A DNA stretch of 64,000 nt, from contig JAPETS010000019.1 of NCBI GenBank assembly GCA_026023565.1, positions 1 to 64,000 on the forward strand, in the 5' to 3' direction. Positions 9,242 to 43,015 of the stretch are shown here, piece after piece; position 1 is the first letter of the stretch; the number at the start of each line of letters is the position of its first letter. Source of the DNA: Cirrosporium novae-zelandiae (taxonomy: Eukaryota). Under the pieces are notes generated by a model. That model saw nothing but the letters and a program-made list of their open reading frames with translations. It was not told the origin of the DNA and searched no databases. A program made the position numbers and the translations under genes.

Positions 9242-9758
9242 TTGATTTTTTGGTTGGCTTATGAGGTGTGGATGTAACGTTGAGTTGGGTGTTTGTAGGA
9301 TTTGGAAAAAAAAATTTGTTGGTTTGGAAGAGGTGGGTTAGTGTTAAAGGCCAAGGTTTGCGGGCTGTAAACGGGAGTGGCGGGAAGGGCGGAAAGGCGA
9401 ATTGTCTTCGGCCGAGACAGGTGGAGTAGCCTTTGCATGTTTTCGTTGTTAGCTAATTAGGTCAGCAAGATAGGAGAGCTATGCTTGAAAAGCGAGTATA
9501 ATCTAGAGGTGAAGAAGATATAGCTCGTGAAGAGCGACGTTGTTTGTTGACCACACGTGAATGAGAGGTTGACACCAATTACGATTCAATAACACCGATT
9601 TTTCCTTCCCATTAAGAAACGTATCATCCAGGAGAGAAAACATAGTATAAAGTACATGTACATGCCTAGGCACAGAAGGGGTAGCAAGCCAACATTCATA
9701 ACAAGAGAAGTTATAATAACAATGCCCGAAAGCCATAGAGTCAAGGCTTGCAGTGTCA

Positions 9759-16584: not shown

Positions 16585-17435
16585 AGGGATAAATGTCGAG
16601 GATGATTTCGATTTGGGACTGTAAGAGGGTTAATAATGATCACAAGTATGATTGTTTATGAACCGGGGAGTAGCATTGGGATATATTTCGGTTTCATGAT
16701 TAAGGAACCTAGATACTTACTGTGTAACTAGACTATGAAATTTTGGACAAAAATTGCAGTGGTTTTGGAACTGGACATGTCTCGAGTCTATTATGTCATT
16801 GAGGTAGGACAAAGCATCTGCTATTGCTGTGTATCTATCTTGTGCATCTGAAAGTAACTAAGAATGGCTAACTCTCCGGTATCTCGCGATGCAGATAGTC
16901 AATGACGAATACATTAGTTGGATTCGGTTAGTTCCTCAGTTCAGTTGGATTTTTGACTGGAAGAGAACTTTGAAGAGAATCCTTTGTGTTCATCAAACAA
17001 ATCTTTTATTCAATTACGTTGCTTATTGACTTTTCTCTTCCTTGGTTTAACACGCTAAGGACGTTATGGGCATGATGGTTCCGGTGTTGCTTAGATATCA
17101 ACTTCCGTCTTTCGGCTCCTGGTACTCTTCTTGTAGGAATTGATAGTTAATCGATACGTTTCTCGTCTTCTGTACTTCTTGCTCTTAGTTGGATCCCCCC
17201 CCATCCATTCATTCATCTTTATAATAATAATGTCATCATTGAACATCTTCAAGATGTTTTGACATTTAACCAGAAACTACCACTCCACTCAATCATGACT
17301 TAGCTAGGTGCTATCCCTCGTCTGAGGTCCTCTTAACCCTTGGTTTCTAACCGTTTCCAATTGTGAGTGATTAAAGAAAAATTAATTTGTATAACTCAAG
17401 CTGATGCGATTTCAGCCTTTGACTCAATCTTAATC

Positions 17436-18748
17436 ATGAGTTCCTCCTCGAAACTGTCCGCTGCGGCAGTTGCTAGACAACAGCCACTCACTCCTCTATC
17501 ACCCGCCACGTTATCGATGCCCGCAGTCCCAGAGAAGATTGTCGCACTGCCTATAACTCCCCCAGATTTCGGTGAAGTCGAAGCCGCCGCCATAAGCGTG
17601 CAAGCTCTTTCGACAGCTGTCCATGTCATATCCACGGAGCGATTTGCGCTTGAACATCTTGAAGATTTATATCAAAATGATCCTATCGCACGAGAGGGGT
17701 TTGCGCATGCCGTTGAAAGTCTGTGCAAATCCATAACAAATGGTGGAAAGTTGGTTATCAGTGGAGTTGGCAAGAGCGCAAAGATTGCTGAAAAGATTGT
17801 GGCTACGATGAATAGTTTGAGCATCCAATGCTCATTTTTACATCCCATTGAGGCTCTCCATGGTGATCTTGGGATGATCCGCTCGGTATAAATAATTATC
17901 TATCCTCGAAAATAATCACTAACATTCTAATTCCGTAGATTGACACCATCCTTCTTATTACTTTCTCTGGACGAACTCCAGAACTCCTCTCCCTCCTCCC
18001 CCATCTTCCTTCATCTTGCCCGCTACTCGTCCTGACCGCTCATACTGTCCCTCATACATGTCTTCTCTTAGAGCGTCGCTCTAGTAATTCCATCCTTCTT
18101 CCCGCTCCGATTCCCGTTTCCGAACATGCTTCATTCGGCATTCGTGCACCTACGACCTCTACCACCGTTGCGCTTGCTTTGGGCGATGCTCTGGCACTTG
18201 CTGCTGGAAGGCGCCTGCATACAATTCCCGGTCGTGGGCCTTCGGAAGTATTTCTGGCAAATCACCCTGGTGGCGCTATCGGGGCCAGTGTGTCGGAAAC
18301 GGGACCAAAACGGATAAGCCATATTGCGACATTGGTTCGTAATATTAAAGTGATATCAGCCGTGGATGATGAGGTTCATGACTCCTGCCTTACTGATATT
18401 GTATGTGCAGCTGTTCGCTCGCCTGGAGGATGGGTTCTTACTGATCCGTATCGGGTTATCGCACCAAGACAAATCCAGAATGTAATGAAGGGTGCTTCTA
18501 ACCTCAATGCCCCAATATCAAGTTTGGACAGAAGCGTCATTATTGAAAAAGGGGATTGGATTTCTGTTCTAGGTAAATGGAGCATTGAGGAATGCCGCGA
18601 GTGGATTCGTCGGATGCGAGAAGAAGAAAGAGGACGAGGGTTCTTGAAACAGGGAACTATCTTGGGGGTAGTAGATGAAGAGGGCACTGTGAGTGGTGTA
18701 GTTGAAATCGAGGATGTTTGGGGAGAAGACTGGGGCGAGTGTGGATAA
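17436..18748 (+). CDS. SIS-domain sugar-phosphate isomerase (KpsF/GutQ-like); exons 17436-17885, 17939-18748
   Basis: LVISGVGKSAKIAEKIVATMNS, FLHPIEALHGDLGMI, ITFSGRTPEL, APTTSTTVALALGDALA, NHPGGAIG, degenerate CBS-like C-terminus GVVDEEGTVSGVV. Confidence 0.9.
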
Positions 18749-21700
18749 CTGCTGGATACAGTGGCAAAAGAAAACTTATAGACGGATTTTGGGAGGATAC
18801 TTTTGAGCGCTTTTTGGGAGCCTTTTGTGGAGGTTTTTTTGTGGATGCTTTTTGGGGAGGCTCCTTTACTTGAATAGATTCCCTTATGGTTGGCTATATT
18901 CTTTTGGGCTTTTGGCAAAGCGAAGATCCTACGCAGGCGTGGTTCTCGGGTCAAATGGAAAAGTCCTTAGAGAAGAAATGGATGGTGGGAATTTTTGAAG
19001 CAAGTCTTGCGATCATTGGGATCCATCTATCCATTCATCTCATCGTCATTGGCCCCTACCTGCCTACATTTAAATCTCTTACGCATCGTACAAGAGATAT
19101 CATTCGATTTTTGGCATGACAGATTTTATCTAACTCTGCTAACGGAATTGCAGGTACACCAGAATACTTAAGCTGTCTTCGTCGTTCTATGTGAGCTTTA
19201 TTCATCACGTCTGGGTAAGCAGTATAACGGGTAGGGATGGAGCATATCAACATGGTATGGTATACATAACATCAGATTTTCAATCACTAAGTATCCTATC
19301 TCAGCCCAGACTCTCCTGCTCATGGACCTCCCTTTAGGTTCTCAAGAGATGCGATGAATCCCATTTCCTAATCCGAACACAAACATCCGAATTCTCAATG
19401 ATACCTACTATGAAAATAGACTCTCTACGTCTTAATTCCCTGGAGCTTGGCATAACGTTCCTCCTGCCGCCCCTTTGAACATTCCACTGATTACGTAGTA
19501 CCAATAGCTTTCTGAGCACAGCTATTCCAAATTCAAACCTTCGCTCATTCAAAAGGTCAACCCTGGTTTTGAAAGTTCGCCTTCATCTAGTATTTAACGT
19601 TCCTTCTGTTATGGAACCTCGTCGGGATATTTGCTTGCGATGTTCTTTTTTGATTCGTAATGCCTGTGCCAGAGGAATATGACTATGCATTATAGTGCTC
19701 TAATACCGGCTTCTTTGATCAATACCTCAAGGATGCCCCTTACTAGAGAGTGAACTTGATATACAAGTTTTTTATTATGACTTAACGAAATCGAGGATCG
19801 ACAAACCACCCCCTGAGTATACTTTCTTTCAACTTGAAGGGCCTACAGTCTGAATTGACTGTGCTCACTGGCCTCGGCCCTTCGAAAATCTGGAAAAGGG
19901 CCAAGAATTGCGTGTCTTATGTTGAGTCATAAAAGATAATGGGGTTACACTGGTAGGATGGTATAACTCATATCCCGACACCATATCAGACGAAAGGGAA
20001 CATGTATGGTCCGTGCGCGGGTATCAACAAATATCCGAAACATTAAGCGAAAGCATTACGTAGATACTTTTTAGATGTTCACGTCTTGCTAATACATAAT
20101 AGGTAAAAGCAAGATGGTTTCTGTTGATATAAACTGGCACCACCATCCATAATCAGGCTCATTATTATTATTATTATAATTTTACCTCTTGCAAACGTTG
20201 GACGGCTCGTCTGATATTCCTCCTGAGGGGCTACCAGCATCAAAGGATATGTCTGTCCTGCAAATATATTGTTTGCAGACATGGCAGTACATGCAAGAAG
20301 CCTCTTTGCATAATTTTCCTTTTTCTTTTTGCTACCAGCATCAATGGGTGAAACCTGTTTACTCGTCCAGCAGACCGGTATATTCCTTTCATGTTCATGA
20401 TTGCTTGGTGTCATTTCCCTTATCTTCAAATACTCCCACATGATCTAGGGGGGGTCATGCCGTCGCTCTTTGGTGATGTAGAGATCATTGTGTTCAAAGG
20501 TTTGTCGCTATGTTTGTGTGCCAGACGGGAGGATATGGGGAGGAAGTCAATGGTTAGCCCCCTGACCCCTGCCGGAAGACAGGAAAATGGCTTTATCTTG
20601 ATAATATCTTGGTAGGTGGAAGGGTGGAGATTGAAGAGGATGATCGGGGTATGGGAAGCACAATCATGCTGCTATACTAGACTTCATTGTTTGGCAGTTT
20701 CAGCTGGATGGTACCAGTGTAGCGTGAGTTGTTTGTACCACCCTTGGACCTTCAGTATGACTGATTGATGTACACAGTATTGTGAAGTATAATCTCGCAT
20801 GAGCTATAAGCTATGACCGTGCTGGCATATCCTGCTTGAGGGAGGGTGTGTTTGAGTGACTATGGTCTATACGTCTGCGCTCGTGCTTTGACCCACATGC
20901 CGAGCTGCGGGTACTATTTTTTTCATCCCTCAGAGTGACTTAAATATCGGACGAATGTGAATAAGTAAAATTCGACAACACTGGTGATATAGGGGATAGC
21001 ATGCACGTGACAAATTCACTACTATGGAAACATCCATGTTTGAGGGTAATGCATGTAGCTACCTGCTGGTATGCACATGCTCTTGTTTGATACAGGATTC
21101 TGTCTGGATTGATCAGAAGGCTCTTTGGGTATCTACTACCAGAGTGAATTGTCACCGCTGTGGTGCTGTGGTGCTGGTTTCAGGCTGCTTGCAAAATTAT
21201 AAATATCTCCCTTTTCCCCTCTCAAATCCTGACTTCTTATTGCCATTCTTTTTTCATTCCTTAGAATGGCTTTGCCTAGATTTATCCACCAGAGACACCT
21301 TTCTATTACTCCTTTATATATCCCTTAATTACAATGATCTCTATATAGATTTTTAACATATCTGTGAGTAAATACTATGATAAGTACATCCTTCCTCATG
21401 ATACCTTCTCTCATCTTTAGGCTTCGGCATGAAACACATTGAAACTGCATGGATGTTATTGCCCCATTCGGGCTGAAGCCAAGTGGACCGATTCATATGC
21501 CAGTCTTCCCAAGATCTTGGTCACTGCATCAACGATGACAGCATTAGGGAACAAGGTAACCAGAAGGTCTATAAGTAGGCTCGTACAAGAACCCATGGCC
21601 GCATCGTTCGATATACATCGGAACTAGTACAAGTTTCTACTTATCAACGAGCATGACTTGGATTCCACTTCGATGTTTTTTTTTTTGGGATTTCAGCAAA

Positions 21701-21923
21701 CAACTGGTTGAAGATCTCCCTCTCTCTCAAAAAACTTTGCTACGTAGATATCAATTACTCAGATTGGGGACTGATTTTCAAGACCCATACTCCCAAACAC
21801 AACTGGAATGTTCTTTTTATAAGCACATTGATTCATTCCACCCCATCATCGTCCTCGTTTCTTCTTAAAAACATTCATTTTAAATCATTTATTTGTTTAA
21901 TCTGTTCTTTTCATTAACCCTAA

Positions 21924-22408
21924 TGTTACGGTTCCCTATTAGGTTAGGCCATTAGGGCATAGACCCTAGGCTCACCTTATAAGGTGAGCCTCCACCCTAG
22001 TCTAGGACATCAACCAATCTACATATCACCAGTCAGAACCTTGGGCATTTCCATGACCTGAGGCTCCCTGACAAGTGGTAGCATGACTGAGTTCGATCAA
22101 GGCTCACCCTGGTCACCAAGATCTTACTGATCTACCAGAAAGCTCGCTTTCACCACCAGATTTTGCCGTTCTTAGGGATTGACCTGAGGTTATATCCACC
22201 AAAATCAAGCATTTTCTGACTCCCACCTCCTCCCCCGCACTTCCCCACCACCACCAATTAGCTCATGGTTATCCATCTAGCTCAATATTCACCTTGAATA
22301 AGCTCTTGATTCCTAGGAATCTCGCACTTTCTACTCACTATCCCCTATCCAATCTACATATCACCAGTCAGAACCTTAGGTATTTCCATGACCTGAGGCT
22401 CCCTGACA
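21924..22408 (+). mobile_element. Internally deleted (TRIM-like) LTR retroelement: 150-bp 5' LTR, 3' LTR remnant, 5-bp TSD CCTAA
   Basis: 5' LTR 21924-22073 (TG...CA) followed by AGTGGTAGC (PBS-like TGG). Its last 60 bp recur at 22349-22408 with 2 mismatches. CCTAA flanks both ends (21919-23, 22409-13). Confidence 0.85.
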
Positions 22409-22587
22409 CCTAAACAAATCTTCGGGGATTAACATTCCTCTCCATTGGGGCCATTCTGATGGTAGACTGCTGCCGAGTCCAAAAAAATTAGGACCCCAGG
22501 TCTGAAAGGGGCGTTAACTAAAGGCCGACCCAGATGATTTGCAGCCTTGGGATCTTGCTTTAACTACGCGTTCGAGTAATCGCGCTA

Positions 22588-23836
22588 TTGAGGGTCTGGC
22601 AGGACTATTACCAAGAGGGGAATCGCTACAAATCATCAATTGATAACATTGTGGCAACCAAAGAATCTACCGAGGCGAAAGATTTCGAGGAGAACATTGA
22701 AATGTTGGATGTAGGAATGCGGATGAAGCCCCAGCCCCACCCTAGCCAACAATATTTTTTTTCTTTTGGGTGAGTGGACCAACCTGTCGCTGATGCTCCC
22801 CAAGCGTAAGTCCGACCTTCCGGAACGTGAGAAGCTGAATGAATTTCCGCCCATCCACAACCAATCTACAGAACAGCCAACATGTGCATATTGCAAGGCC
22901 AAATACCCCCAACTCTTCCAAGTGCAGATACCAGGCGGGAAACCGATGGTGAGAAGACCGTCAGACTGCTCGTTCTATGCATCCCCCACTGACATAGACA
23001 ACCGAATCCCGGTCCAAAACCAAAGGGAGCGGAACTGCCACGGAATCCGAGGCAGCTCCCCTGGAGGAAACACTGGGGGAGGAGAAACGCCGTGAAAAGG
23101 GCGGAAGAGAAGAAGGCTGCTCGAAAGGCGAAAAAAGCGGTCACCACCTTGAGGTTGCAGAAATGGTCGATTAACTTGTCCTTGTCCTTACATAGAAGTA
23201 TTACTCTGGTCTCTATATCAAAATCGCTTAACAAGGTTCTCATTGGGGGACTTACAATTCCCCAAGAAGCTATAAACAAAACTCGTGACAAGAAACCTTT
23301 CTGCCTCTTTATAGGGCCTCTCTTCTTATTCATTGGCCCAACCTGTTGATTTTTATGTTACAACTTTTCTTTGAGTGCTCATGGAGATTCCCGAGTCCCT
23401 TAATGTTATCGTGCAGACATTTGGCCTGATAGATTGCATGGGCCAGCTCATCGTGCCCCTCCTGTATATTCTCCACACCTGGCGCACCAACGACCGCGCC
23501 GTGGAGTATAGCAACACCTGAAAATTCATCTAGTAGGTGCTGTCCGCCGATTTAGGCGGAGACAATGACTATGAGAAGCTTAAGCTTGCGGAGGAGGTCA
23601 TCCAGATCCTGTTCGGCTAGCATTGCAGCAGACTGTTCTGGAAGGATTGTGCGGCCCGACCTTGGGCCGATGCCGCTACTGATCAGGAAATCCCCCCCGA
23701 CCCCAAGTTTAGTGAGGTTAAAGGCGACCGCTTCCGAATTAGGACCCTCCAACCCGGCTCTCATGCTCCTGGCATTGAGGGAGAGGATGAATATTCGCGG
23801 GACAAAGGTGAGGCGACTGGGGTTGCCCAAACATAA
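22588..23836 (+). pseudogene. Degraded ORF of unrecognised family (Cys-containing CAYCKAK segment; C-terminal EKLKLAE..LFWKxCAAR domain)
   Basis: Protein-like translation broken by frameshifts and in-frame stops. The C-terminal part 23573-23800 has a ~70%-identical paralog starting at 30738. Confidence 0.6.
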
Positions 23837-26764
23837 CTTGATTCTAACCGTGTTACCTACGACACAAAATTCAGTGAAAAGCATGCAATTTTTGGGTGTA
23901 TCATAATCCCGAAACAAACTCCTTCAATGGCCTTGTTGCCATATCTTCCCCTGCAGGACAGGGAAGAAGTTTGGGTCACCGCTAGGATATGCATTCAACT
24001 CCAAAGTAAGATCTCTTATGATTTATTATCTACCCCACCCTCACCTACTTTCGATAAATCCTGCATCATGGGTCTCTTGGTGAACCTTTCAAAAACAGGA
24101 GCATCCACTGTTGACACTCTACCACGCTTAGGCGTCGCGCCTGCGGCTCCAGCTGCCTTATTCGACCCCCATCGCTTTAGGACATTCTTCCTATAGCTCC
24201 TCTTAGTATTCTAATACCCACCAGTTCATTGCTGTGAGATACTCGACTTGCCTGTATTATCTCGTCCCTTCTCTGGCTTCTTCTCTCCCTAGATCACTCT
24301 TCTCTCTCTTAAACACTCCTCTCTCTTGCAAAGAACTCCTCGCCGAACCGTTTAGCCTCCTACATAATTATTCAATTATTCTAATATATATTTATTAATA
24401 TACTATTACCCAATCCCAGATATGGCTATATATATAAAGATAAAGAAGGTTTACTAGTAGTAGTAGTCTTTTCATCTTGGTTGCTAAAACTTGTCCTCCT
24501 TTATTCTCATAGCTAACAGCTATCTTTTGTTTTTAGAACGCGATTGAAGCGAACCGTTAAACTGGGTTCTAGCAATGTTATATCAATTCAAGAAATTTAT
24601 TCAGAAATATATACAAGAGAAAGAATGCTGCTGAGATGATTTAGTTCATCCTATAATTTCTTTTCTAAAAAAGAGACGAGATCTCAACGGTAATTTCTTG
24701 ATCCAGAGGCCTTTCAGTTGCCCCTGTGATCACTCCACTGTGAACTTCTTCTAACACTTGAAGGTGGATAACCCTCTGGGTGAAATCGTGTCAGCCAAAT
24801 CAACTACAGCAACTACATCCATCACATCGTATGTCTCACATCACGGATTCGTGATGTAGCTTTGGGGTAGGCCGTAGACATGATGGATGGGTCGTCTCGA
24901 AGCCTTGGTTACTGTAGCTACGAGCGAGGAGAAGGCTGCTACGACATGGCCAGAAAGTCTACCTTGATACGTCTGTGATGCAGATGTACATTCAAGAATG
25001 GATGTGTCATCATGAAAGTTGCACTCATCTTTTCACCTTGGATGGTCGCAGGATCCATCCAGGTTGGATATGTTTGAATGAGCGTTGCTCTCGGTTCTTG
25101 ACACTCCTTGACCGATGAAGGTGGATTACCACCTCAAGTTCTGATTCATCAGAATCAGAGGAATCGAATCCAGATTCAGACTGGGAAAATGACTCCGAAT
25201 TTGACGATGCAGCGTCCAGAGAACCTCTCGAAATTCAATATAAAGTCCGGTGCTGCGGAAGAAGTCACTTTTGCAAAATTGGAAGAAGAAGAGGAGGAGG
25301 AGGCAATTCGGTAAATCAATGACTACCAAAGGGGATAACTTCGACCTAAGACGAGATGAACTTTACTATTAAGGGGGGGCACAGGCATATAGTTGGAACT
25401 GACGAACAGAAAAGGCAAGCCCGCAAATAGCACTAGTGTTTCCTACACAGGTTATATCCACATACCCTCCAACAAACTCCAATAGTCCAACTTCAAGTTG
25501 ATTTACGTGATGACACGGTTGCGTAGATACCGAATCAATCAAACCATAAAGAGAAAACCCATGTTACACAGTCGGCTCCCCTCCTCGTCTCCTCTCCTAG
25601 CCCTACCCAACAAGCGCTTTGATAGCAGTGGCAAAGCAAGTAGGGTTAACTCCTTGATCACCTTTCAACAAGGGTTGCTCCCCCCATCAACAAACCCTGA
25701 AAAGTCTAGACCGGCTAAATACATAAATCCATACAAAGGCCCCCTTTTCTTTTTATATAACTAGATAGCATTGGCTTCACTTTTTGATCCATTCCTCTAC
25801 TTCAATTACAATTATCTTTCATTAGAAAATAACAATTTTGATTACAGAACTCTACTCTCTCCCATGATCCTCCAATTACCTGAAAATGAGGTCTCAGATT
25901 CATGTTCTATATATAATTATTATTATTTATCCAAGGAAAAATCGAAAATCAAAGCTTTTTTTATACTGTATTTTACCGCACTCTCGTCTAGTGAAGCTAA
26001 TGCTAAGGCTGCACTCGCACCTTCAGACGCAGCAATTATAATGAATCTACCTCTAAAATTCTCCTCTGTCAATCGGACCCTCCATCTCCCCTCCCCTCCT
26101 CTACCCCATGATGCCCGATTTTGACATCTTCGTCTCCTTACTAGAACAGAGGCTCTCTCCAAACCCTATTCCTGTTCGGGGGGAAGCAAGATTTCATGAT
26201 CTCCCTTCTTGGAAGACTGGACGAATGAGGATGCAAGAAAGGAACCAAGCCATCCTTATACTCTGGCCGAGGAGATTGACGCGTGTAAGAATTCCTCTAA
26301 TTTTTTTTACGAAATCTCCGACAACCCCAACGCGCATGGCGAATGGATATGGTATTTATTTATTTATTCATTCATACCGTGGACTTAACGAAAACGACCG
26401 TACAGTGTTGTATTCTGATTTAAATAATTCGACTGATCCCTTCAACTATCCTTTCATCTAGACTAGGTTTTGTTTCGTTGGGAAAATGGAAGCAGAGACA
26501 AGAGACTCCGTGAAGAGGAAAGGGGACTCAGCTGCCAAGGAGTGAAACCACCATGCTGCCATTTTTGCGGCGCTTGAACCAAGGTGACTTTGGCTCCGAT
26601 GCCCCTGATGAAGAGTTCTAAGCGGGCAAGGGGACAATATGATCATGCCTTCCAAAGTCGCTTGTTGCTTGTTCATAGCCAGGGGGCCAGAGATGTCGGT
26701 TGCGATCCTCATTCCTACTCATAGAACATCCTTTATATCTTCCAAGCAAGCAAATCAGCAGGCA

Positions 26765-28950
26765 GGCGGATAATATCCCCCCAACAAAATTGCTTAGTCT
26801 AGCTTAAGGGGTGTCGGCTACTATTTTATCATCATCTTATCTTCGCCCTCATCCTCACCCGTGCCAACACTGCCGGTGGAGAATTGATGGCCGGTGACCT
26901 AATTCATGATAAGAGATCTCAAGCAGACAGCCGAGTAACAATCCAATACAATTGATTTGGTTTACTCTGGAAAGTGAAGATGGACAATAGAGATTCAATC
27001 ACAGCACCAAAATTGCTGATTCAAACTAGAAGGCCGGTGTCGATTAAAACCCCCGTCTTGTTGATTCAGCTGGAATCATCATCCAGATCCAATATCTCAA
27101 AGGGTGAAGTCACTAGGAAGCTTCTTCACCAATGATGCACAAGTCTCAAGAACCGAAATAACATCCCCCAAAGCGGCTTGTCGCTCGTTCCAAAAAAAAG
27201 GGCAAGGAATACCGGTTACGACTCTTATCCTCGTCATCCCCATCCTTATCCTCACCCGCCCTAACATTGCTCAAAGCTCCAGGTTCCAGTGGCTTCCAAA
27301 GGAATTGATGGCTAGTGATATATAACTTATAATATAAAAAAAACTTTCAAGCAGATAATTAAATAATATCCCCTCAACAAAATTACTATATTCTTAACCC
27401 GGGAGCCAGGAGGTGCCGGTTGTGACCTTTTTTTCTCTCGTCAATTTCAATCGTGCTGGTGTCGATATCCAGATCTAATACCTCGAGGAAAATCTGTAGG
27501 CCGTGGCCCGGGCCATAACAAGAAGTACCAAGCAACAAGCTCGTATCCCCAAAAGCCGCTCGTTGCCTAAGAAGCCAACAAAGCGTCGCAAGTGCGGCGA
27601 GTCCAAGGCACCCAGGGCTGCAGCCGAAGAAGCCTCCACGCCAACTGATGATGATCCTCCAAAGAGAAAATGGGGAAGACCAAGGAGGGCACCAACAATC
27701 AAGAAAGAAACTTCGCCAGATCCAATCTCTACTCATCATTCTCATCGTTTATTCTTAATCAGGAATGCCGGTTAGAACTCTTACCCTCGTCACTTTCATC
27801 CTTATTCTTGCCAGCATCCCAGGCATCCAATATCAATACCTCGAGGGAAATGTGTAGCCCGAGGACTAGGCTATAATAAGGAGTTCTAAATAAACAACCA
27901 GTTTGATCCTACAGCCACTGACATCTCAGCGAAAATAATTGGACCAGACGCCAAGGTACGTTAATTTTATGTTCTTGTCTAATAAATAAACTAAAGTTTA
28001 TTTTCTATTTAGGAGTCCTTATGGGCGATCAGCCTATTTGCGGAAGATCGATTATCCAATATAGAGTTGGATATCATGCGTGCGAACAAATCTTGACTGA
28101 CGATCGAAACATCGACTACTGGCATCTATATCAATATCGATATCCAACCTCCTAAAAGAAATCCGTGGCTAGTAACCTAACTGATAATAAAGAAATTTCA
28201 ATTACACTACAGAAGAACAACACAATCAGCCAAAATTACTTATTCCCAAATAGTGTCCGTTACACCCATCATCCTTTATCCTCATCCCCATCCATGCCAA
28301 CACTGCTGGTATCAATATCAATAATCTAAATTCAAATCTAATACCTCGAGAGAAACCGGTGATCAATGACCAACCCAATGTCAGACGAAGAGTTCCAAGC
28401 AACGAAATAGTAATCCTCCCTCAAAATTTCTTATTCCTAATCAAGGGGCTAAAGGGGTGCTGATTACACCCTTCCTTCGCTAACGTCCGCATCCATTCTC
28501 GTCCTCATATCTATCTCTGCCAAAACTGCTCTGCTGGAACCAATATTCAAAGCTCGAGTAGAAACACATGGTTCAGTCAGGGGTGGAAAAGGAAAAGATT
28601 TTTTTCTTCAACTGTTTGGTCTATCTGTCTGTCTGCTGTTGGGTCCGGCAGATATTCTCTTTATTATTTATTATTATATATACTTTTATATTATCGGTGT
28701 TGTTGGTGGCAAGATGCTTGCTGGATCCGCTCGTCATCGTTCGTCTTCATCCCCATCCGTTCCAACACTGCTCTGCTGGCATCAATTATCAATACCCATA
28801 TCAAACTTCAGATCCAGAGTTGAAGCTGTGTTTCTGCAACCGTTTGGTTTGTCTGTCTGTGAGGTCCGGTGGTTATTCCCTCTATTAGTTGTTATATACA
28901 CACAAAAGATTTTATTTGAGAGTTCTATGCTCTTATATTATCGTTGATGT
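26765..28950 (+). repeat. Degenerate tandem array A (irregular ~200-450 bp units, same orientation)
   Basis: Recurrent motifs: CCAACACTGC (26864, 28297, 28762; variants ~27260, 28520), AATACCTCGAG (27477, 27835, 28340), GAATTGATGGC (26881, 27302), ATAAYATCCCC (~26770, ~27158, ~27363). Confidence 0.7.
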
Positions 28951-29260
28951 GTTGGCTATTATATGCTCTCCTGACTACATCCGTTTTCCTCTTTCGATGT
29001 CTTTACCACTTCTTCCACATCTACTCATAGTACCGAAGTACCCACGTTGCGAAAACGTTTCCTATAGTTTACTGCATGCTTTCCAGACCAACATCCCAAT
29101 TCCCATCACTTTATCCATATCTACCTACTTTTACCCTTTCCATCCCATTCCTCCAACTCACACAAATTCTTATTTCTCTAACCTTCCATACAATCATCTT
29201 TACAATCCTTATTGCAACTTGAACCACAATTATCATTAGACGACAAAGTATATTACAAAC

Positions 29261-29887
29261 ATAGCTCCACCTAAGAAAACTGATGAACCATCTCAGCAAC
29301 CTCAGAGAATTTCTTAGAGGATTGCTGAACAACAGAAAAGCAAAAATCAACGTGCCAAATAAAATACGCAAAAACTATTTTCATCAAACCCTCAGATAGA
29401 TACACAGCAGCGAGCACTACCTATAGTAGCACTGGGCCGTACATACCGGAACATGGATCAGTTCACCCAGTACATAGAAACTCTGGAACCTGAACCGCGC
29501 TACCAAATGCAGCTGGCAGCGGCTGAATCATTAGAATCGGGAGCTATATACCTGGGCGACTAGGCGGACCTGCTATGGAATTACATTAAATTAGACACTG
29601 CTTGAACTAGGACTGGAAGAACATCGCAAACAGTAGAGGCTAACTTTTCAGAGTTACGAGAAATAGCCTCCCAGGGTCGAAATATCCAAAAACGACGACA
29701 GGAAGCTATCAGCAACATCGGTACAAAGTACAAAGACTTAGGCAAAATCCTTGAGCAACACAATCCAGAACTAGTGACCGGACCATACCTGAAAGCTTTG
29801 CGAGCTGTACTGCAGAAGAACTACCAAAAGGCTCGCCTATGGTGCGAAAACGACATCCTCACCCTTATTACGAGCTTTCTTTCTTAA
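29261..29887 (+). pseudogene. RIP-like inactivated 208-codon ORF of unrecognised family ((M)APPKK...LWCENDIL)
   Basis: Single frame from ATA (probable ATG>ATA) to TAA, with premature stops TAG 29315, TAA 29360, TAG 29561, TGA 29603. Intact ATGGCTCCACCTAAG start copy at ~34223; WCENDI copies at ~30199 and ~31333. Confidence 0.65.
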
Positions 29888-30731
29888 TAATATTCACTTC
29901 TTATTCTATCACTACCATCATGGATTATACTATTCAAACTTGCGCGTGGGGTTTGCCAGTGCCAGTTCCGAAAGAAGAAAATTATATTTTTTTGAATTAA
30001 GAATTAGTTTTATATATACACACATGTATAACAAAAAAGTTATTTGAGAGAGCGATATGGTATGGCTCTTATATGTTACTTCATGCTTTCCTGATCACAA
30101 TCTTTTTTCCCTTCTTTCTCCGTCTTTCTTAATCCATCATCCCTTATTTTTAAACTCTTCCCCGATACCCACACATCGAGCATCAAAAGACTCGCCTTTG
30201 GTGCGAAAACGACATCTTCGCCTCCCTAATAAGCTCTTTAGATCCGGTCATTCTTGCTCTTTCACATCATCTTGGATCTGGAACCTCCAAACCACAAAAC
30301 GCCAGATGGAAAACACGAATGGGCTTGCTTGTTTTTTTTTTTTGAATCATCGTGCTGATGCTGAGAAAGAAAGATTATAATCAAGATAAACTTTCTATGG
30401 TTATATTTTTTTCTTTTTTCTTTTCTTGTATTTCTTCTTCCATTTTTGCCTCTAGCACCAAGACCCGCGCAGTTATGGAAATTCGGGGAATGGATTTATT
30501 TTGCTTATTACATACAGTCAAGTAACGTTGCCAACCCTCCTAAAAAATCATACCACCGAACCAAAGACCCAATATCTACCTTAAAAATCATGCACACACA
30601 CATATATGCGTGCAGAAAGAGAATGTCTAAAAACTATAATCCCCCTTTTACCGTTAGCTTATTATTTTTTCAATATCTTTACTACACCCTCTTCGTCCTC
30701 GTCTTCCATCAAATACCAAAAGCTCACTAGT

Positions 30732-31013
30732 AACGACGAGAAACTCAAACTGGCGGAAAAAATAATCCAAATCCTATTTGGCTAATATGGTAGCCGGCTT
30801 TTCTGGAAGAACTGCGCCGCTCGACTATAGATCGACGCCGCCACCGAACAGAAGAGTCCTCCTGATCCTAAATTTAGTGGTGTCTAGGGCGAGCGTTTCT
30901 AGGTTAGGACACCCCAACCTGGCTCCCGCGCTCCAGGTGTTGGTGGAAAGGAAGAGTATTCCCGGTACTCTGGGGCAGCGAACGGCATTCCATTCAATAG
31001 CTATGTAGGGTGA
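30732..31013 (+). pseudogene. Second copy of the EKLKLAE..LFWKxCAAR..PPDPKFS domain
   Basis: Translates NDEKLKLAEKIIQILFG*YGSRLFWKNCAARL*IDAATEQKSPPDPKFSGV*GERF*VRTPQPGSRAPGVGGKEEYSR; ungapped match to 23573-23800. Confidence 0.75.
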
Positions 31014-32781
31014 CTGCAAATCGGGGTAAAGCAGTTGATAAGATCGTAGAACTCTACACTACACTACTCTACACTACATCACTGTCTGTGTGGACCCACC
31101 TTTATATGGATGGATTATAATGCACAGTACAGCCTCGGTTATCCTAGAATTACTTCCGAGAAAAGAAAGATTATATCACTAAATTGAAAATCAATTATAT
31201 AGTACGCAAAAGAATCCATTCGAGAGAGCTGTATGGTATAGCTCTTATATTACTGTTGAATACTTTCACTACAAATTTTCAGTTACACTCCATCCTTCCT
31301 ATCGTCCACCACCAAGAAGAACCCACGGTCCATGGTGCGAAAATGATATCTTCCCACACTGCATGCTTCCTCTCCGACCAGTGAGGGACGAGACGACCAA
31401 GGACATCCTAAGCGATCAAAGATTTTCCTATGCCTCTAACATTCTTGACAAAGAGATGAGAAGTACACTATACACTCGCGGCCAATTCGAGAATTAACTT
31501 CTGAGAGAAAAAAAAAGATTGGGTTATTGGAATTAAAAGTTAATTATATACTACCCAACAAGAAGTTATGCCAGAGCCATCACATCACGCTCTTATATTA
31601 TTTTTTTACTTTGCAAATATTAAAATCAACTTCACTTCATTTCATGCTTTCTCTATCGTTTGAGAGACGCTTCGTATAGCTCTTCTTTTCTTTCCTCCCC
31701 CTCCTTAACAATTGGAATGTGAGTTGCAATACCCATTATACCAACAAAAAATAAAGAGAAAGAGGTCAATGTTCCCAGATCTATAAAAAGCACACATAAC
31801 TAATCGTTTAAAATCATCCCCGATAAACGCGACACCAGACGCCCCACTATCGATAGGATATATAACCACCCTACTACTGTACGATATATATCTTGGTTTA
31901 AAAACTGGAGCATCCCTAGTGAACTTGGTTCAAGATGTCTTTCCTAGCTAAACCATTGAACCCTTCCTCCAGTACAATTTACAAATGAAGGGAAGTTTGT
32001 TGGTGGCACAACAAGGCTAAAGGACCTGACAAACCCACCTGCGCAAACTATCCAAGACCCAAGAAGGGAAAGGGACTAGTAATAAAGGTAAAGGCAGGGC
32101 CAAGGCGTACCTCAAGGCAGCCAAAACCTTTAGTTGGTTGGTCGCCTGGGCTATCGGCATGCCGAAAACCAAGAACAGGAAGATGGGTACGATCAACCTC
32201 AAGGATTCGTCACGACCACGAAAATGGTGGTTGGACTAACCAACCAACCTTGCTGGCTGAAGAATATCGAAATTGATTGAAAGTAATACAACTCACGAAG
32301 CTGGGACTTTTAAACTTTGTGTTACTTTAGGACTTCACAGAGATTTTAAAGTGGTTGCAAATGCCGTGCTTTATTCTTCATTCCTTTTGAAATTATTGGC
32401 AAAAAGGGTATGGAGGGTAAAACTCACAATTCTAACCAGGCACTTCATACCTTGAACCTCTTACAAGGTGCCGTCCTCTAAGGAAACGAAAATTTAAATA
32501 CAACACACAAAAAGATATTTTTATTCGAGATCTCTACATAATATGGCTCTCATATTATTCCGATGATCATTATTATTTCCCTGACACAACAAATAAGTTT
32601 CCATACGATCTTTCCCTTTCCTCTTGCTCGTTCTTTTCTATTATTTCTTCTCTATCTTTATTTTCTAACACTTTATAAAACTCTTCCGCGATTACGAGGC
32701 GTGTGTGTGGGTTTTGTTTTGTTTGTTTTTCAAAAAATAATACTAATTCTGAAAAAAGAGTATCTCTATCTAAGGATCTAG

Positions 32782-33277
32782 TGTTAGAACTTTAGTGTTT
32801 ACGGTCTTTAGTGACCGTTGGTAGAGTGATACCCTCATAGTTAAGTTTCGCTCAGCAATCCACAACAACAAACATATTCATCAATCAGTAAGATCATTGA
32901 ACTAAAGATCGATTTCGCTATTTCGCCTACGATGTATGCTCAATAATGTGAAATGACTACAGCTGGCCGATGATGGCCACATACGCTCACAATCTCGAGG
33001 CCAGTCGCCGCCCTGGGCGTGGAGAATCTTGGTGGTGCTGCTGGAAGATCTGCAACAAGTGCATAGTCGTCGCAGAGTAAGTGGGGTCGATGCTGGTAGG
33101 AGGCTACTTCGCCGCAGCGGGGGGGAGTATTCCTCCTTGGTGCTTCTCGCCAGAGTTATGATGGATATTGCTGGATTCTCACGAATCAGTCTCCCGTCCA
33201 TTTGCTCCGACTCGCTTTATTGATCTTCGCAATCATTGACCGAACAGGTGGTGCATTATAGCACCACACCATCTACA
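32782..33277 (-). mobile_element. Probable solo LTR (~496 bp) inserted in array B
   Basis: GC-richer insert bounded by TGTTAGA / TCTACA, with a TATA-containing hairpin GTGGTGC-ATTATA-GCACCAC near one end. Removing it restores ~290-bp array spacing. No TSD recognised. Confidence 0.4.
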
Positions 33278-33749
33278 CCTCCTAAAAATCCCACTATATA
33301 TGGATACAAAAGAAGTTAATTTGAGAGCTCGACGCTTTTATAAATCGTTGGTTATATTGCAACACAATTAATCAACCTCATTATATCCTTTTTCCCCAAT
33401 AATATCTTCTACTTCCCACTCGCTGGTTTCTTTTTGCCACCATTTCTATTTTTATTTCTTATACACAAAGCCCCTTTCCGATTCATTCGAAGCAAGGTGC
33501 GTGGGTGGGTGTGCTTGTTTGTTTTGTTGAATACTCCGGAGTAAACTCTAAGGAGGTTAGGTTAGATTACTGAATTACGAATTAATTATATAGGCAACAA
33601 GGATTTATCCGAGGGCTCTCTATGCTTTTTATAGGTTATCATTTTCTGATATTATAGCCAATTTCACCACAATCTTTCCAACAATATCTTCTACTTCCCA
33701 TTCTATGGTTTTTTTCCACCACTTCTATTTTTATTTCTTAACACAAGAG

Positions 33750-33904
33750 CAGGGAAGGGAATAGACCAGACTGACCAGACCCTAGGGCATATGCCCTGAG
33801 GCTCACCATATAAGGCGAGCCTCCCATTTAGCTTAGCACACCATCCAATACACTTATCACCAGTCAGACCTAGTCATTTATCCATGACCCTAAGCCCGCT
33901 GACA
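33750..33904 (+). mobile_element. Diverged solo-LTR relic related to the 21924-22073 LTR
   Basis: Colinear blocks TAGGGCATA..CCCT, AGGCTCACC..TATAAGG.GAGCCTC, TATCACCAGTCAGA, TCCATGACC, ending CTGACA. Confidence 0.75.
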
Positions 33905-36900
33905 ATATGAATGTGCTTGCTTATTGAATAACAATGCCACAATACTGAAGAAAAAAGGGTTATATCACCGGAGTAAGAATCAGTTATATATTACACAAAA
34001 AAGAATATATTCAAGGGGTCTATACTCCTATATTATCGTTGCTTGGTTGTTGTTATTATTTGCAACACTATAGGATTTCCATCTCAATCTCATTCCATTA
34101 CTCAAATCCCCCTTTCCTTACTCTCTCCTTACCCTATTCAACCCCTCACAAAAATTACTACTAAAGCACCGCTGCTTGTCATAACATATTATCTTATTCC
34201 ACAATCAAATAAATCAATCAATATGGCTCCACCTAAGGACAGTAGAAGCAAAAGTTCTGCCCCCTCAGCGTTTTTCAAAACGTATTGCTCCTCACCACAT
34301 TTTTTTATACCATTTCTTTCTTTTCTTCTCTTTTTTTCTCTACGCTTATTTTCGACCACTTCTTTCTTTCTCCTCTTTCCCCCACACTCATTTTTCCCTC
34401 GCACTTCTGCCATCCATTTCTAGCACCAAGTTCGGCGGTGCTAAAATGCGTGGGGTTTTCTTTGCTGGCTAGTTGAATACCAGAGTAAACTCAAAGGAAG
34501 TCAGTGAGACTTATATTATATAATTGAAAAATCAATTTACTCTCGAGAGAGCTATCATGCTCCTATATTAATATTATTATTGTTTTTGTAATACAACAAT
34601 CCTAGTCCCTCTATGCTTTCGAATCATTCCTTTTTTCCTTCCCACCCTCTAAGGTTATATATCATCAGACTAGAATTATCTTCACAGGAAATCCATTCGA
34701 GAGCTCTTATGGCAAGGGCTCCTATATTATTATTTATCTCTTGATTTTTGTTATTTGTTATTTTGCAACACAACCAATTCTTCCTTCCCTCCTATGTTTT
34801 TTGATTATTTCTCTTTTCTTTTTACCACCTTCAACCCCGATATCCCCAAACCAAAACCCTTTCGGGGTTGGAAAGTTGCTGGTTTTGCTGATTTCCTTTT
34901 TTTTTTCTATCAAGAGAAGAACACAACCGAACCTGAGGAAGAGGTAGATTCAACTGGTTGCTGCTCGATTTACTCGCTACCGCTCCAACTTCCTTGTCGC
35001 TGTTCTTTGCAGACGGACAGACTAGCGTTGAAAAAAAGAAGAAACTTTGATAGAAAAGAGCCCGCTGGTTTTACCCCACAGTTCCTAGGAGGAAAGTCGT
35101 GGGTCTCTGTCTGTGTCTGGTGTGTTATGCTTGTCTGTCGCCAAACACGACAGCGACAGCGATAACAAAGGCAAATACCAAAGAAACCAAAGGGGATTGC
35201 CACCATGAGGGAGGGGGTATCGACCCGATCGGTACCCTTATGTACCTTAGATACACTTGTGAGCGGTCCTTCATACGGTACCTGCATCAAGGAGGAGAAT
35301 CCAACAGTGTCGCAAACACCCTTGAAATCATCTATTCGGGTCGTGGTCGTGGTTGTGGTCGTGGTTATGGTCGTCCTGCTTACTTAAACAATATCCCTAA
35401 TGAAAAAAAGGGGGGGTTTTTCTTTTTAATATTATAATATCTCCTTCCTCGGACTGGCTCATTTATCCCCAAAGCATTCCTCTCAAATTTTCAATAAAAA
35501 CAACAACATTGGCTTTTACTTCGTGAGATGAGAAGCTTCTCTTCTGTGTTTACAGAAAAAGAAGAAGAAAAAGGCTTTTCTGGATGATGACGAGACTATA
35601 TTCCGTCTTTTGTGGATATTTATATATGTGAATTCTGGAGTTTGGAATACATCTTTCATGGATTGCTAAATAGAGAAAGCAGAGAGAGGGAGAGATAGAT
35701 TATCAAGAATGGATTTTCTCGCTCTACGAATTGTTCTGCCAGCACCTGCTACCTGGCTGGCTGGCTCTGTCACTCGGAAGCTTAGTTATCAAAGTTGGGT
35801 TTTTTCATGGTATTGATTGGCTGTTTTAGTTTTTTTTTTGGCTTTGTTTGATATATACGGTGGGGGGGAGGGTTTGGTTGGTTAAGTTCAAGACAAGAAC
35901 TTGTCTGACCGTGTCGTGTCATGTCCCTGTTGTGTTCTTTAGGATGCAGTTCTTGCATCGGGAGTTACACCGTTGTTGTCGTTGCAAGCCTGATGAAAAC
36001 TACAACAAAACGACAATCCTGGTGCAGCTAAAGCCGTGGACATACCGACCAGAGAAGATGTGATAACCCCATCGCTTCAGTTCAAAAATCTCCTATTCCG
36101 AAGAAGAAGAAGAGCAGGGGGGGATCATTTCCTACCGGGCGACAGCGTAACAATCTCTTTCATCTCACAACATAGTGTGGGTCCCATTCATCGGGAAAGC
36201 TACCGGGGGGGTGTCAGACACCCCCATATCCAAGCCTGTTGCTTGCTGTGTGGACTTCGGGTGCAGACCCTCCAGAAATTGGCTGGGGGTCTTTTGGAGT
36301 TTCCCTGTCATACGGTTTCTGGAAGGCAGGGAAGAAATTCAAGATTTATGGCAATGATCTCATGGCACTGATAGACCGATTCCTCGGAGGACAACATACC
36401 CCAACACCACACGAGCCATTCAGACCTCCACAACAATGGCGGCGGTTCTTAGATAGATGCATAGAATTAATGTAACCCGGGTGAGCCTGAACCACGCAAA
36501 AAGCTAATCGATGGGGCGTCGTGTCTGGAGCAAGAAAAACAGGTATTTAGATATTTAAATAGTATAACGATGGAAATTGATTCGCTAATTTTGAAAAAAT
36601 AGGATAGTTTGGCCATGATCTTTTGGGGAAAGATAGACATGCGTGTGTGGACAACTAAGAGAAAAAGGGTTATTTGCTATTGTTTATCTTGATGGTTTAG
36701 CAGAGGAGGGGGAGGAATAGGATGGTGGTGACGATGTGGGTTTGAACTGAGCTTGTTTACTAATTCTCTCTGGGAATTTTACTACTATGTGTGTTATGGA
36801 TAAGGGGGTTTTGAGAGAGGGGGAGTATTGGTGATGACGGTGGTGGTGGGGTTCTGATATATATTCATATACAACGATTATGAACAACAGGTACTCCATA

Positions 36901-36964
36901 ACGAAAGGAGTCTATAGGGGCAGGTTGGTCGCATCATCCCGTGGTTTTTGATTACTACGCTGTA

Positions 36965-36991
36965 GTGTGTGTGTGTGTGTGTGTGTGTGTG
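36965..36991 (+). repeat. (GT)n microsatellite
   Basis: Directly visible. Confidence 0.9.
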
Positions 36992-38345
36992 GTCCTTTAT
37001 CCTATCCTCAGACACTATCAACCAAACAAACCTCCACGAAGCAAAAGATCCTGGACAACCTCTCTAGTCGTCTACTAAGGAAGTTTGGGATATAGTTTTT
37101 GTTCTTTTCGCTGCTTTTCTTATCAGTGAAAGCTGGGAAACCAAGACGAAAGATAAAGATACTTCAAGTTGTGAATCTGATAATATTATTGGCTTGATAA
37201 TTTTCATTATTTAATCTTCGGATGGGAAAAAAAAAAAAACCTTTGATTTAATTTATTTTTTCGGGAAAATGGGGGTTTTATGTATGGTTATTAGGATAGA
37301 GAGAGAGAGAGAGGCCTTAGCAATCAAATTATATTTACTACCAACTAGTAAGGCCCTGGTCTCAGTAGGAGCTTTTACCCAGGGGACATTGTGTAAACAA
37401 ATAAGCAAGTAACCAAGGAAAGAGGTCTGGCTAGCTTGCTGGATGGTACATGTTCATCATGAACAGAATCTGTTAAAGAAATAAGTAAAGTGGTGACGGG
37501 TTAAGCGAGGTCTTTTAATCGGCAAAGGGTTATTAAGTATACAAAACCCCTTTTGGAAAGGGGAATTAGAAAAGCAATAGAAGCTGTGTATCTATCAGAG
37601 GTGAAAAGGTGTCATATGGAATATGGAAAATAATATGAATCATCGATATCAAACAATCAAGAAGATATTAGCAAACCCGCTTGACAGCTTATAACAAAAT
37701 TGGGGGAGGCGGGAGTACAATAAACTATAGAGTAAAGAAAAAGGGAATAAAAAATATCTTTTCTTTTTTTTTTTCGTTAGTGTGGTGACGATGTGTATCT
37801 TATTGTCTTTCTTATATCCGTTAAAAAACGAAGTCAAAGTTCCTTCTCTGGACATAAACTAATAGATATTGCAATTAATGTTTTTTAGTTTTTCTTACTT
37901 AGTGTTAATCACGTACAGCATCCCGTGTTTTGCCTAGTTTTTTTTTTTTTTTCCCCTGCATTTTCCTCATACTTTATCTACTTCAGTATAATCACTTTCA
38001 GCGTAGAGAGTGGCATTGAAAACACTTCGTCACAGATCCAAGGGTTGCTATTAGATTAAGGTTAATTATTCCGATATCCGAAATGCTCTTTTACCAAGCA
38101 CGTGCCAAGTAATCTTATGCGGCCATCCTGCGGGCCGAGTGAAGCTAATGTTGTAGTAAGTTTACAAAGAACTATATTTCAACTTTCGTAATCAGGTAGT
38201 TGCAAGAAGAGGGAAAGAAATTTGGATAGGTAGTGACGGCAGCCCACGCCTTGGTTGACTACTAATATTGGAGATATCTATGTAGCTATCTAGAGGCCAA
38301 CTTCTGACATCGCGTCCTGGGCTATCTTGTTATAGTCCTATGTGA

Positions 38346-39275
38346 TTATACCCTGTGCTCAAATCCCCGACACCCGCTTTCAGCTAAAGCAACCATCAAG
38401 ATCCAGAAAAAACCTTGCAACCAAACACAGATCGCTAATGTTGCCTCTTCTGCCCCGCTACAGTCCGCACTGTCCGAACTGGCTTTCGTACACGTCGCAT
38501 CGCTATACGTCTCACAATTTAGCATCCCAGTTATATCTCCCGTATTAGCATCACTATAACTTTCGATGGAGATATGACTGCACGTATCATCGAAGACGGT
38601 TATATCACTTAGATTGTCAGGCAAATCTGTGCTATCGGCACTTTCAGACCAAGCCGATGATACGTTGCAGAAGTTCCCAGAATCGCCGTCGTAGGCTTTG
38701 AACTGCTGGATTTCGAAAATCCAGCATGCTCCGCTGTAGAGGCTTAGTCTCATGAACTCGTAGATTCCAGTGTAAGTATCACCAGAAGTGTCGGTGTATT
38801 TTGGCATCTTGCTGGTAGTGGTAGTCGCGGTATTGGTAGTCGAAGCTACAGCACTGGTGGCTGCACTCGCGGTAGTGGTAGGAATAGAGGTGTAGAGCGA
38901 AATGAGTTACGAGTATACCCACGTCGCATGGTCATTATCGATCGAAGTGTCTGTGGTTAGTGTTGCGGGCTAGGTCTCCCATTGACAAGTAACGCCAGAA
39001 GGAGCGGCACCGATGAAAGTTGTCGACGATTCCGTCACGATGCATCCGTCTGCAGTTGAACATGTCCAGTCGCACTACGAATCATCACATGCAGTTGAGC
39101 AGATGCTTGCAGTTTCCGTCTCGCATTCATTACTATCATTACCATCGCTACCACTTCCACTGACACCGCCGTCTATTCCAAATGGAGAACACAACAGACA
39201 AGGATCATCGCACCATACACGGCATTTTTGTCCGCATCCTGACCATCCTGCTATACACGTAGGTGTTGGTGATCC
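38346..39275 (-). pseudogene. Fragment of a Cys/Thr-rich secreted-enzyme C-terminus (as seen on large fungal glycoside hydrolases), 3 premature stops
   Basis: One frame: GSPTPTCIAGWSGCGQKCRVWCDDPCLLC...ECETETASICSTACDDS*CDWTCSTADGC...TTTTSKMPKY...LNCETYSDATC. Stops at 39077, 38972, 38909. No catalytic N-terminus seen. Confidence 0.6.
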
Positions 39276-40360
39276 TTAGTGTCCATGACGTAGTCTTAGT
39301 GTTCAACACGGAGTCTATCGTTGTCTACGACCACGGATGAGGAGGAGGCGTAATAGTGATCGTAACAATGAGCTTAAGACATGGTTAATTGAAATTCTAA
39401 CATCCTGGATAGCTCTCATTCAAGACGTCATAAATTTCTATAAGGGAAGAGGGAGTCGAATGGTCTCATCCCATATTGGTCAGATGATTTGGTGGAGTAC
39501 ATCTTCGAGCCGGAATATAGGAACGGGGTAGGCTTTTGCGACGTTGGAGGCTTTTTCGCCGGGTACTCAAACTGATACCACCCGCATGTACCATAATTAA
39601 CTCTATGTCCAAGAGCTTTCACGTATGGCGACAACTCTGTCAAGTTAGGTAGCCGAACACCCAAGGACAGATACATCCAAGGAAGTACTTCCTCGATGTT
39701 CAATCCTCTACCAATGAGCCTTTTCACCCTCTTGCTGACCGCAGCCAAGCTACCTGATTTTGCCTGTAAGTTCTACCAGCACCCCCCTTCTTTTGCCAAG
39801 CAATCCGCACAAGACTGAAGAATCCTACAGATTCATGCTCAGAACAGGTTCAAGCCGTGCAGTCGCCATCTGTTGTTTTTTTGAACCCTTCAAGGAGGGC
39901 TACGGAAAAGCGATAGCAACCGATTTTCAATTACTTGGGTTTTTATATAATAGGATGGGATACCATCATTCCATCGAACGAGTAAAAAATGATAGAAGCA
40001 GCTCTTGTCATAACAACTATAAATCATCTCATGGTAGCCAGTAGAAAGGAGTTAAGTTATCCGTACATTTGCTAGCTTTAACTACACCATCCACTCTCGA
40101 AATAGATACTAATGTCAGGAATACCCGGAGGTAGATAGGGGCTATTAAAAAAAGTCTGAGATGATGCAGTTAGGACGGATTCATGGGAAGAAAGAAATGA
40201 AATGGATCATGGAAGCTGCAGGTACTTGAAATATGGCCCAAGGGAATAAATACCATGAGTCCTAAATCATTCTAACCCTAATTTTCTATTCCCCATGGAG
40301 ACTCTTCTCCCACAACAGCAAACCCACCAAGATCCGAAAACACAGTATTTGTTAATCAGA

Positions 40361-42815: not shown

Positions 42816-43015
42816 TGTTATTGAATAGTGGGATTTTGAAATTTGCGCTGTTAGAAAAGCGGAAGTCGGAGCGGGGAGTAACAAAATTCCATCAGCCCTA
42901 CCACGAACTTGATTGGTTCCACACGAACGCCGGTTCTTAACATCATTTTCAAATTAATTCAAGCACAAAATACTCAAAGCGCTTAATCCTCTTGGTGTTT
43001 CATTAGGGTTACAAG

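Follow-up and report, generated by a model that had tools for sequence, protein, structure and literature searches.

We analyzed the first 64,000 nucleotides (the window) of contig JAPETS010000019.1 (C40 below) in the 31.4-Mb assembly of the fungus Cirrosporium novae-zelandiae, focusing on the 21.6-kb gap, here called the island, that separates a SIS-domain gene (forward strand, end at 18,748) from a convergent DEAD-box helicase gene (reverse strand, end at 40,361). Our analysis indicates that the island is probably a long-standing intergenic dumping ground for fragments of retroelements and genes, amplified locally by tandem duplication and deletion. The feature is real but of an ordinary type, a decayed intergenic patchwork that yields two modest by-products and leaves one polarity unexplained. 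As an initial annotation of this DNA had stated, no intact gene was seen between the two flanking genes, and no stop-to-stop frame exceeds 186 amino acids. No mobilizing enzyme was found in the island, which most likely has no present function.

The repeat core of the island covers about 13 kb (21.9–34.9 kb), the outer 8 kb or so being single-copy. A search of 21–35.5 kb against the organism's own genome, in which 39 of 55 candidates were scored, gave 41 matches, 35 of them to one 150-bp long terminal repeat (LTR) family; the other six fall to an SNF2-like relic (two), a long interspersed nuclear element (LINE; one), a host gene (one), and unclassified sequence (two). First, we identified an internally deleted LTR element (21,924–22,408, forward strand) through its LTR family matches and a target-site duplication (TSD) read from the sequence. 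This element shows the features expected of an LTR remnant: a 150-bp 5′ LTR bounded by TG..CA, a TGG stretch resembling a primer-binding site, a short internal piece that matches contig C1, the 3′ half of a second LTR, and a 5-bp TSD (CCTAA). The dispersed copies of the family carry TSDs of their own, and since the window copy has its own CCTAA duplication, it represents a separate insertion. A 5′-truncated LTR of a sister subfamily, preceded by a purine tract, lies at 33,777–33,914 (forward strand) and is 89% identical to C83:88–216 and 77% identical to the first LTR.

A second piece (22,454–23,146, forward strand) corresponds to the 5′ untranslated region and the start of open reading frame (ORF) 1 of a LINE, with 67–70% DNA identity to C57:89.3–89.9 kb. 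This reference element has both ORF1 and an ORF2 with an APE endonuclease domain (Exo_endo_phos, E = 4.5e-6); the C57 copy stops after the endonuclease and gave no reverse transcriptase (RT) match. The similarity is at the DNA level, and a protein comparison of one 118-amino acid frame produced no alignment.

A third source is a gene encoding an SNF2-like ATPase. Copy 1 (23,321–23,879, forward strand) contains the C-terminal helicase lobe and tail, with in-frame stops, and copy 2 (30,728–31,007, forward strand) is a tail relic lying within array B, described below. Both harbor the EKLKLAE motif (at 23,573 and 30,738), they are 70% identical over 231 bp of DNA, and they share a stop at one codon that encodes glutamine in the related copies on C83 and C96. 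Copy 1 is 76% identical to the C83 copy over 425 bp. Motifs V–VI of the helicase C-lobe are recognizable, motif VI being decayed in the window relic; no N-terminal SNF2 ATPase lobe was found in this relic, and the C83 copy keeps part of that lobe (E = 5.5e-6). Since the A1 profile includes the C96 copy, which makes its score against the window circular, P0003 and an L091 member were used instead, and these matched the window relic with E values of 8e-8 and 1e-8, respectively. The less decayed copy on C96 (P0001) retrieved 13 library proteins; the top match (P0002), repeat-rich and aligned outside its helicase, was dropped, and 11 of the 12 left have a Helicase_C domain, one protein having SNF2-rel as well. 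A word-index search returned one member of this family and 33 generic SNF2 proteins. Similar atypical SNF2-like ATPases occur in Pezizomycotina (Schaereria dolodes MMC06_005454 and Aspergillus steynii P170DRAFT_481285), with a Helicase_C domain bearing Q-x-x-G-R-x-x-R-x-G-Q and the same downstream helices, whereas the window has only a decayed 3′ part. A viral origin of the family was considered and set aside, one weak locus being present in viral contigs.

The fourth source is a retroelement ORF of 208 codons with four stops (29,261–29,884, forward strand), which begins with MAPPK, its start codon now being ATA, and ends with WCENDI. A second MAPPK start (34,223–34,285, forward strand) is cut off after about 20 codons, and WCENDI occurs three times, near 29,840, 30,199, and 31,333. 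We searched for this ORF in the present genome and in Pfam; no Pfam family was found, and the genome yielded four further copies (36–41% identity), three on C36 and one on C90, all in AT-rich blocks. On C36 the ORF comes after a pol region degraded by repeat-induced point mutation (RIP), in which a FIDDV motif resembling that of RT and an RT_RNaseH match (E = 7e-7) are still recognizable; integrase-like motifs were recognized by eye ahead of the ORF in two of the four copies, and the other copies have shared upstream DNA. Because two of these copies follow pol- or integrase-like sequence, we identify the MAPPK ORF, on sequence grounds, as an additional sense-strand ORF belonging to a Ty3/gypsy family, located 3′ of the RT–RNase H–integrase region. 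A RIP-aware scan against five Ty3 regions matched 29.2–30.1 kb and no other part of the island, and the WCENDI end was not found in the C36 copy. Extra ORFs after the integrase are described in passages of two sources (PMC7264820; 10.1101/2021.04.13.439636), among them the antisense brtn of Botrytis Boty; in Boty and in plant additional ORFs, too, the extra ORF lies between integrase and 3′ end and is kept in several copies. In contrast with brtn and with gene23 of maize Grande, which are antisense, the MAPPK ORF is sense, and its window copy is detached from the element and tandemly repeated. Maize gene23 has an upstream promoter of its own, according to a passage of PMC7264820, and Retand-type amplified tandem repeats appear there in a reference title.

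Finally, two short stretches derive from host genes. A 61-bp sense copy (24,887–24,947, forward strand; 93% identity, E = 1.1e-17) corresponds to the 3′ coding end, presumably the last exon, of a C2H2 zinc-finger gene at C96:86.4 kb, whose zf-C2H2 Pfam match is weak. The other, a 47-bp sense copy (26,290–26,336, forward strand; 87% identity, E = 2.9e-6), comes from a coding stretch of a gene at C13:767.5 kb that is unlinked to the former.

Two co-oriented arrays occupy much of the core. Array A (26,650–28,860, forward strand) has seven degenerate units of about 200–500 bp at 26.8–28.9 kb and was found at this locus only, and array B (28,870–34,940, forward strand) has ten units at 28.9–34.8 kb, five of them seed units and five non-seed matches (E = 1.7e-6 to 0.086). 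A sensitive self-comparison of 18–41 kb returned 29 rows, each of them a direct repeat, whereas a 23-kb control (41–64 kb) contained one distinct pair. When the array profiles were compared with a first set of other loci of the genome, no unit was found outside the island; in 226 kb of later stretches, array A gave one match (E = 0.21) and array B none. Separately, the array A stretches 26,942–27,002 and 27,993–28,132 match intergenic DNA at C63 and C49 (79–89%). The units of array B consist of a TATA-like tract with a short imperfect hairpin, a pyrimidine-rich leader, and variable cargo, several ending in a GT-rich motif. By its layout, this plan resembles promoter, leader, ORF, and terminator with differing cargo, roles that the units may once have had, and a weak alignment (score 82) hints that the repeat could derive from an internal promoter of the Ty3 element.

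The initial annotation had picked out the two MAPPK starts, the three WCENDI ends, the two EKLKLAE domains, both arrays, and LTR insertions (the pieces at 21.9–22.4 and 33.8 kb), and all of these are present. Its view of the island as decayed, tandemly amplified DNA derived from mobile elements also agrees with the LTR, LINE, and Ty3 pieces and with the direct arrays. Its attribution of the relics to one unrecognized multi-ORF family, on the other hand, fails because they trace to separate, unlinked sources of differing class: the LTR family, the LINE on C57, the SNF2-like family on C83, C96, and C41, the Ty3/gypsy ORF on C36 and C90, and the two host genes on C96 and C13. This is largely the outcome, relics mapping to unrelated genes or known transposable-element families, that it had itself named as telling against its proposal. 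No other locus compared has two of the pieces in island order, in a search that is weak on RIPed copies.

RIP silencing, also proposed initially, does not fit the data. With product and substrate thresholds of TpA/ApT at least 1.1 and (CpA+TpG)/(ApC+GpT) below 0.9 (as given in a passage of PMC3778014), the composite index is positive in none of the 21 one-kb island bins (product never above 1.04, substrate never below 1.04), and in the comparison with C36 the window is the side that mostly keeps C or G; on these two grounds we rejected a RIP-silenced repeat. RIP is active in this genome, with C36 down to 10–27% GC, while GC along the whole window is 35–50%, and the window copy of the MAPPK ORF is un-RIPed whereas its four relatives in the C36 and C90 blocks are heavily RIPed. 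According to a passage of PMC3778014, RIP requires more than 400 bp and more than 80% identity, and both this source and PMC4165359 indicate that pieces under about 400 bp or 80% identity are poor substrates. The island pieces would have escaped heavy RIP because most are shorter than 400 bp or less than 80% alike. We also observed that C36:1–89 kb and C90:54–95 kb are centromere-like blocks of nested, RIPed retroelements (10–30% GC) and that the 55–56 kb bin of the window is RIP-positive (product 1.26, substrate 0.73).

Under the reading that we favor, independent pieces, each traced by homology, would have arrived over time: the LTR element, the LINE 5′ end, the 3′ part of the SNF2-like gene, the Ty3/gypsy accessory-ORF region, and the short host copies. 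Many of them most likely came as fragments of reverse-transcribed complementary DNA (cDNA), through retroelement insertion, template switching, or the patching of breaks. Unequal recombination between repeats would then have amplified the accessory-ORF unit and a neighboring unit on site, with trimming by deletions; both arrays, the three copies of the WCENDI end, and copy 2 of the SNF2-like relic could have arisen in this way. We infer the multiplication in place from the co-orientation of the units, their restriction to this locus, and the shared stop codon. Slow later decay, with scattered C-to-T changes, would have followed.

Several observations weigh against this reading. Seven polarized core pieces (the LTR element, the LINE, the SNF2-like relic, the two host copies, the Ty3 ORF, and the third LTR) are sense on the forward strand, with a chance of about 0.016 (2 × 0.5^7, calculated by hand, post hoc, and not for independent events if some pieces arrived together), and a purely random graveyard is therefore a poor fit. 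The cDNA route, which would keep sense pieces on a common strand, is a putative cause. In addition, the own-genome search, which scores top candidates only and cannot see copies that RIP has changed heavily, revealed no source for array A, an AT-hook-like ORF within it, the WCENDI end, and three ORF relics. Some RIP did act on the island, since the stops of SNF2 copy 1 lie mostly at CpA codons; such scattered stops suggest light RIP. Lastly, C or G is kept in the window at 226 of the 777 columns aligned with C36 and the reverse is seen at 18, an asymmetry inflated by a matrix that rewards C-to-T and G-to-A.

Another reading makes the 13-kb core a single retro-captured composite: repeated template switching among RNAs packaged together would have produced a chimeric cDNA, either derived from Ty3 or flanked by LTRs, which was inserted on one occasion and expanded afterwards. 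Besides the seven sense pieces, this is consistent with LTRs of one family in the same orientation near both ends (21.9 and 33.8 kb), the purine tract ahead of the third LTR, and the predominance of retroelement parts. We nevertheless consider it unlikely, as the TSD of the first LTR element marks a separate insertion, the outer LTRs, which belong to different subfamilies, share just 77% identity, and array B runs past the third LTR.

It is very unlikely that the island is the remains of one large cassette, Starship-like or new, with the SNF2-like ATPase as its core gene. In its favor, relics of this gene are found on four contigs (C40, C83, C96, and C41), those at C83:8.6–14.4 kb and C41:1,076.7–1,079.9 kb having a shared small Cys-motif ORF upstream. 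At one locus of a metagenome contig (L091:1–3150 and 7509–11372), a complete member of the family stands head-to-head with a gene that has an OrsD domain, and an intergenic relic of the family was seen in another fungus, in an unrelated metagenome contig (L101:10,001–10,500). The window, however, has a 3′ fragment only, lacking both the N-lobe and the upstream ORF, arrays A and B and the MAPPK ORF occur at none of the other SNF2-like loci, the two OrsD matches of this genome lie elsewhere, close to the ends of different contigs, and no recombinase match was obtained. In agreement with the initial annotation, no Pfam match to RT, integrase, DDE, or recombinase was obtained in 24 six-frame read-throughs of the island, which are less sensitive on decayed frames and cover all of it but two stretches, one about 640 bp and the other about 200 bp long (the forward frame of the former was Pfam-scanned separately). 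Like Starships, the island is a large block with few genes that looks inserted into the genome of a filamentous fungus, but no captain recombinase, typical cargo, or second copy was found here; the captain domain (DUF3435), which Starships carry at the 5′ end, had no Pfam match in these read-throughs, which decayed copies could escape. The SNF2-like gene may still belong to a dispersed cassette of which the island keeps just a 3′ scrap, twice.

Around this gene family, further features were observed. The C83 copy of the Cys-motif ORF seems, by eye, to be split by an RT/RNase H-like fragment with no Pfam match. An ORF downstream of the L091 OrsD gene shows, again by eye and with no Pfam match, a spaced R..H..Y pattern like that of tyrosine recombinases; with the query used, the ORF neighboring the OrsD gene was not found in the present genome. 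The OrsD matches of this genome (C56:836–949 and C73:172,819–172,962) are both less than 5 kb from contig ends, like telomere-linked helicase genes. The L091 pair is possibly an undescribed helicase-bearing element. A passage of PMC10799480 lists AcademH, KolobokH, and Helitron as fungal transposable elements bearing helicases, and 10.1101/721753 mentions a gene with SNF2_N and Helicase_C domains, a candidate member of this family, on a Colletotrichum supernumerary chromosome. Our literature search, from whose reach most subscription papers fell, returned no paper describing this SNF2-like subfamily as mobile or as element cargo.

Lower still we place a non-autonomous Helitron-like element, which would have taken up gene fragments by end bypass and formed the arrays by rolling-circle replication. 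The short sense host fragments and tandem units would suit it, as would a TC(C/T)TATAT motif that follows the short hairpin in array B units and that we take to be similar to Helitron ends. Pleurotus HELPO1/2 Helitrons likewise share captured host sequence and a likeness to subterminal-type hairpins. In the island, however, the hairpins are weak: an AGAG/CTC-type stem is the best fold in seven of the ten B copies, and z is below −2 in two of the ten. Among the inverted repeats listed (the 25 longest of 44, plus 15), none is a hairpin-plus-CTRR end, and no dispersed family with common ends was found, in contrast with the Helitron hallmarks given in a passage of PMC4289320. A search for the RepHel domain Helitron_like_N (PF14214) gave no match in the genome, where a control sequence was equally silent. 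At their 5′ end, Helitrons carry TC. The hallmarks of a Starship-like or Helitron-like cassette, as suggested in the initial annotation, were not found.

More doubtful again is a capture array, in which the promoter-plus-hairpin repeat of array B, from the internal promoter of the Ty3 accessory ORF, would have been a repeated entry site for sense cDNA (SNF2-like, LTR, and ORF pieces, and likewise the LINE and host pieces), leaving an integron-like, transcribable record of mobile elements. If the co-orientation did reflect such ordered cDNA capture, fungi would have a new way to keep a memory of elements or to form genes. Least probable of all is a domesticated cluster, in which co-option of the additional Ty3 ORF was followed by tandem amplification into small expressed genes and later by pseudogenization, or a locus that served as a single-strand source of small RNA against retroelements: the escape of the window copy from RIP, to which four element-borne copies succumbed, the promoter-to-terminator look of the units, and their co-orientation would agree with it, but all copies are broken, Rfam gave no match at E up to 1 and no tRNA was found, and the fragments are mutually sense, with no sign of antisense transcription.

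Returning to the favored reading of an old, locally amplified dump, the closest counterparts are the nested graveyards of transposable-element relics in filamentous ascomycetes, which likewise are gaps devoid of genes and filled with truncated pieces of LTR elements, LINEs, and genes; a passage of PMC3248453 uses the term complex transposons for nested elements that arose when several insertions hit the same locus. Unlike the AT-rich C36 and C90 blocks of the same genome, the island has normal GC content and lacks a RIP signature, and it further differs from such graveyards in its strong co-orientation and two locus-specific arrays. As by-products, it holds the sole readable copy found of a sense accessory ORF from a fungal Ty3/gypsy family, RIP having made the copies within elements unrecognizable, and it draws attention to an SNF2-like family that is little described, turns up repeatedly as scattered relics, and may be carried by an uncharacterized element.

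Additional ORF relics lie in the core. A Cys-rich, then acidic relic (24,981–25,320, forward strand), recognized from its translation, has no significant Pfam match; its first part (24,981–25,120) is a short ORF with two similar W-x-C-x4-C motifs and is probably a zinc-binding relic. An open frame of 119 amino acids follows the first SNF2-like relic (23,837–24,196, forward strand), with no Pfam match and weak, unnamed Atlas matches, and another relic lies between array B units (31,889–32,494, forward strand; no Pfam match in three frames). The AT-hook ORF of the initial annotation stands in part: a basic 90-amino acid ORF with a GRP core is present inside array A (27,500–27,769, forward strand), whereas no Pfam AT-hook match supports the name, and no significant second copy was found in the genome.

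Outside the core, the claim that the whole 21 kb is made of relics was not upheld. The spacer at 18,760–21,900 has no Pfam match and found only itself in the own-genome search (18.76–21.9 kb), and 33.92–40.35 kb matched only itself and one array B unit. Nor are all relics on the forward strand, as a single-copy Cys/Ser/Thr-rich protein relic with in-frame stops (38,346–39,330) lies on the reverse strand; we take it to resemble the C-terminal region of a protein secreted by fungi, the Pfam and Atlas searches having given no match. The left flanking gene (17,367–18,748, forward strand) is intact, with one intron, and its Pfam SIS_2 match (E = 6.7e-4) is below the cut-off. The right one (40,361–42,953, reverse strand; DEAD E = 9e-42, Helicase_C E = 7e-25) is presumably MAK5, as named initially. 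Farther along the window, a pair of 35-bp inverted repeats is present at 55,604–55,818, and a short repeat at 57,058–57,150 is common to C83 and C68.

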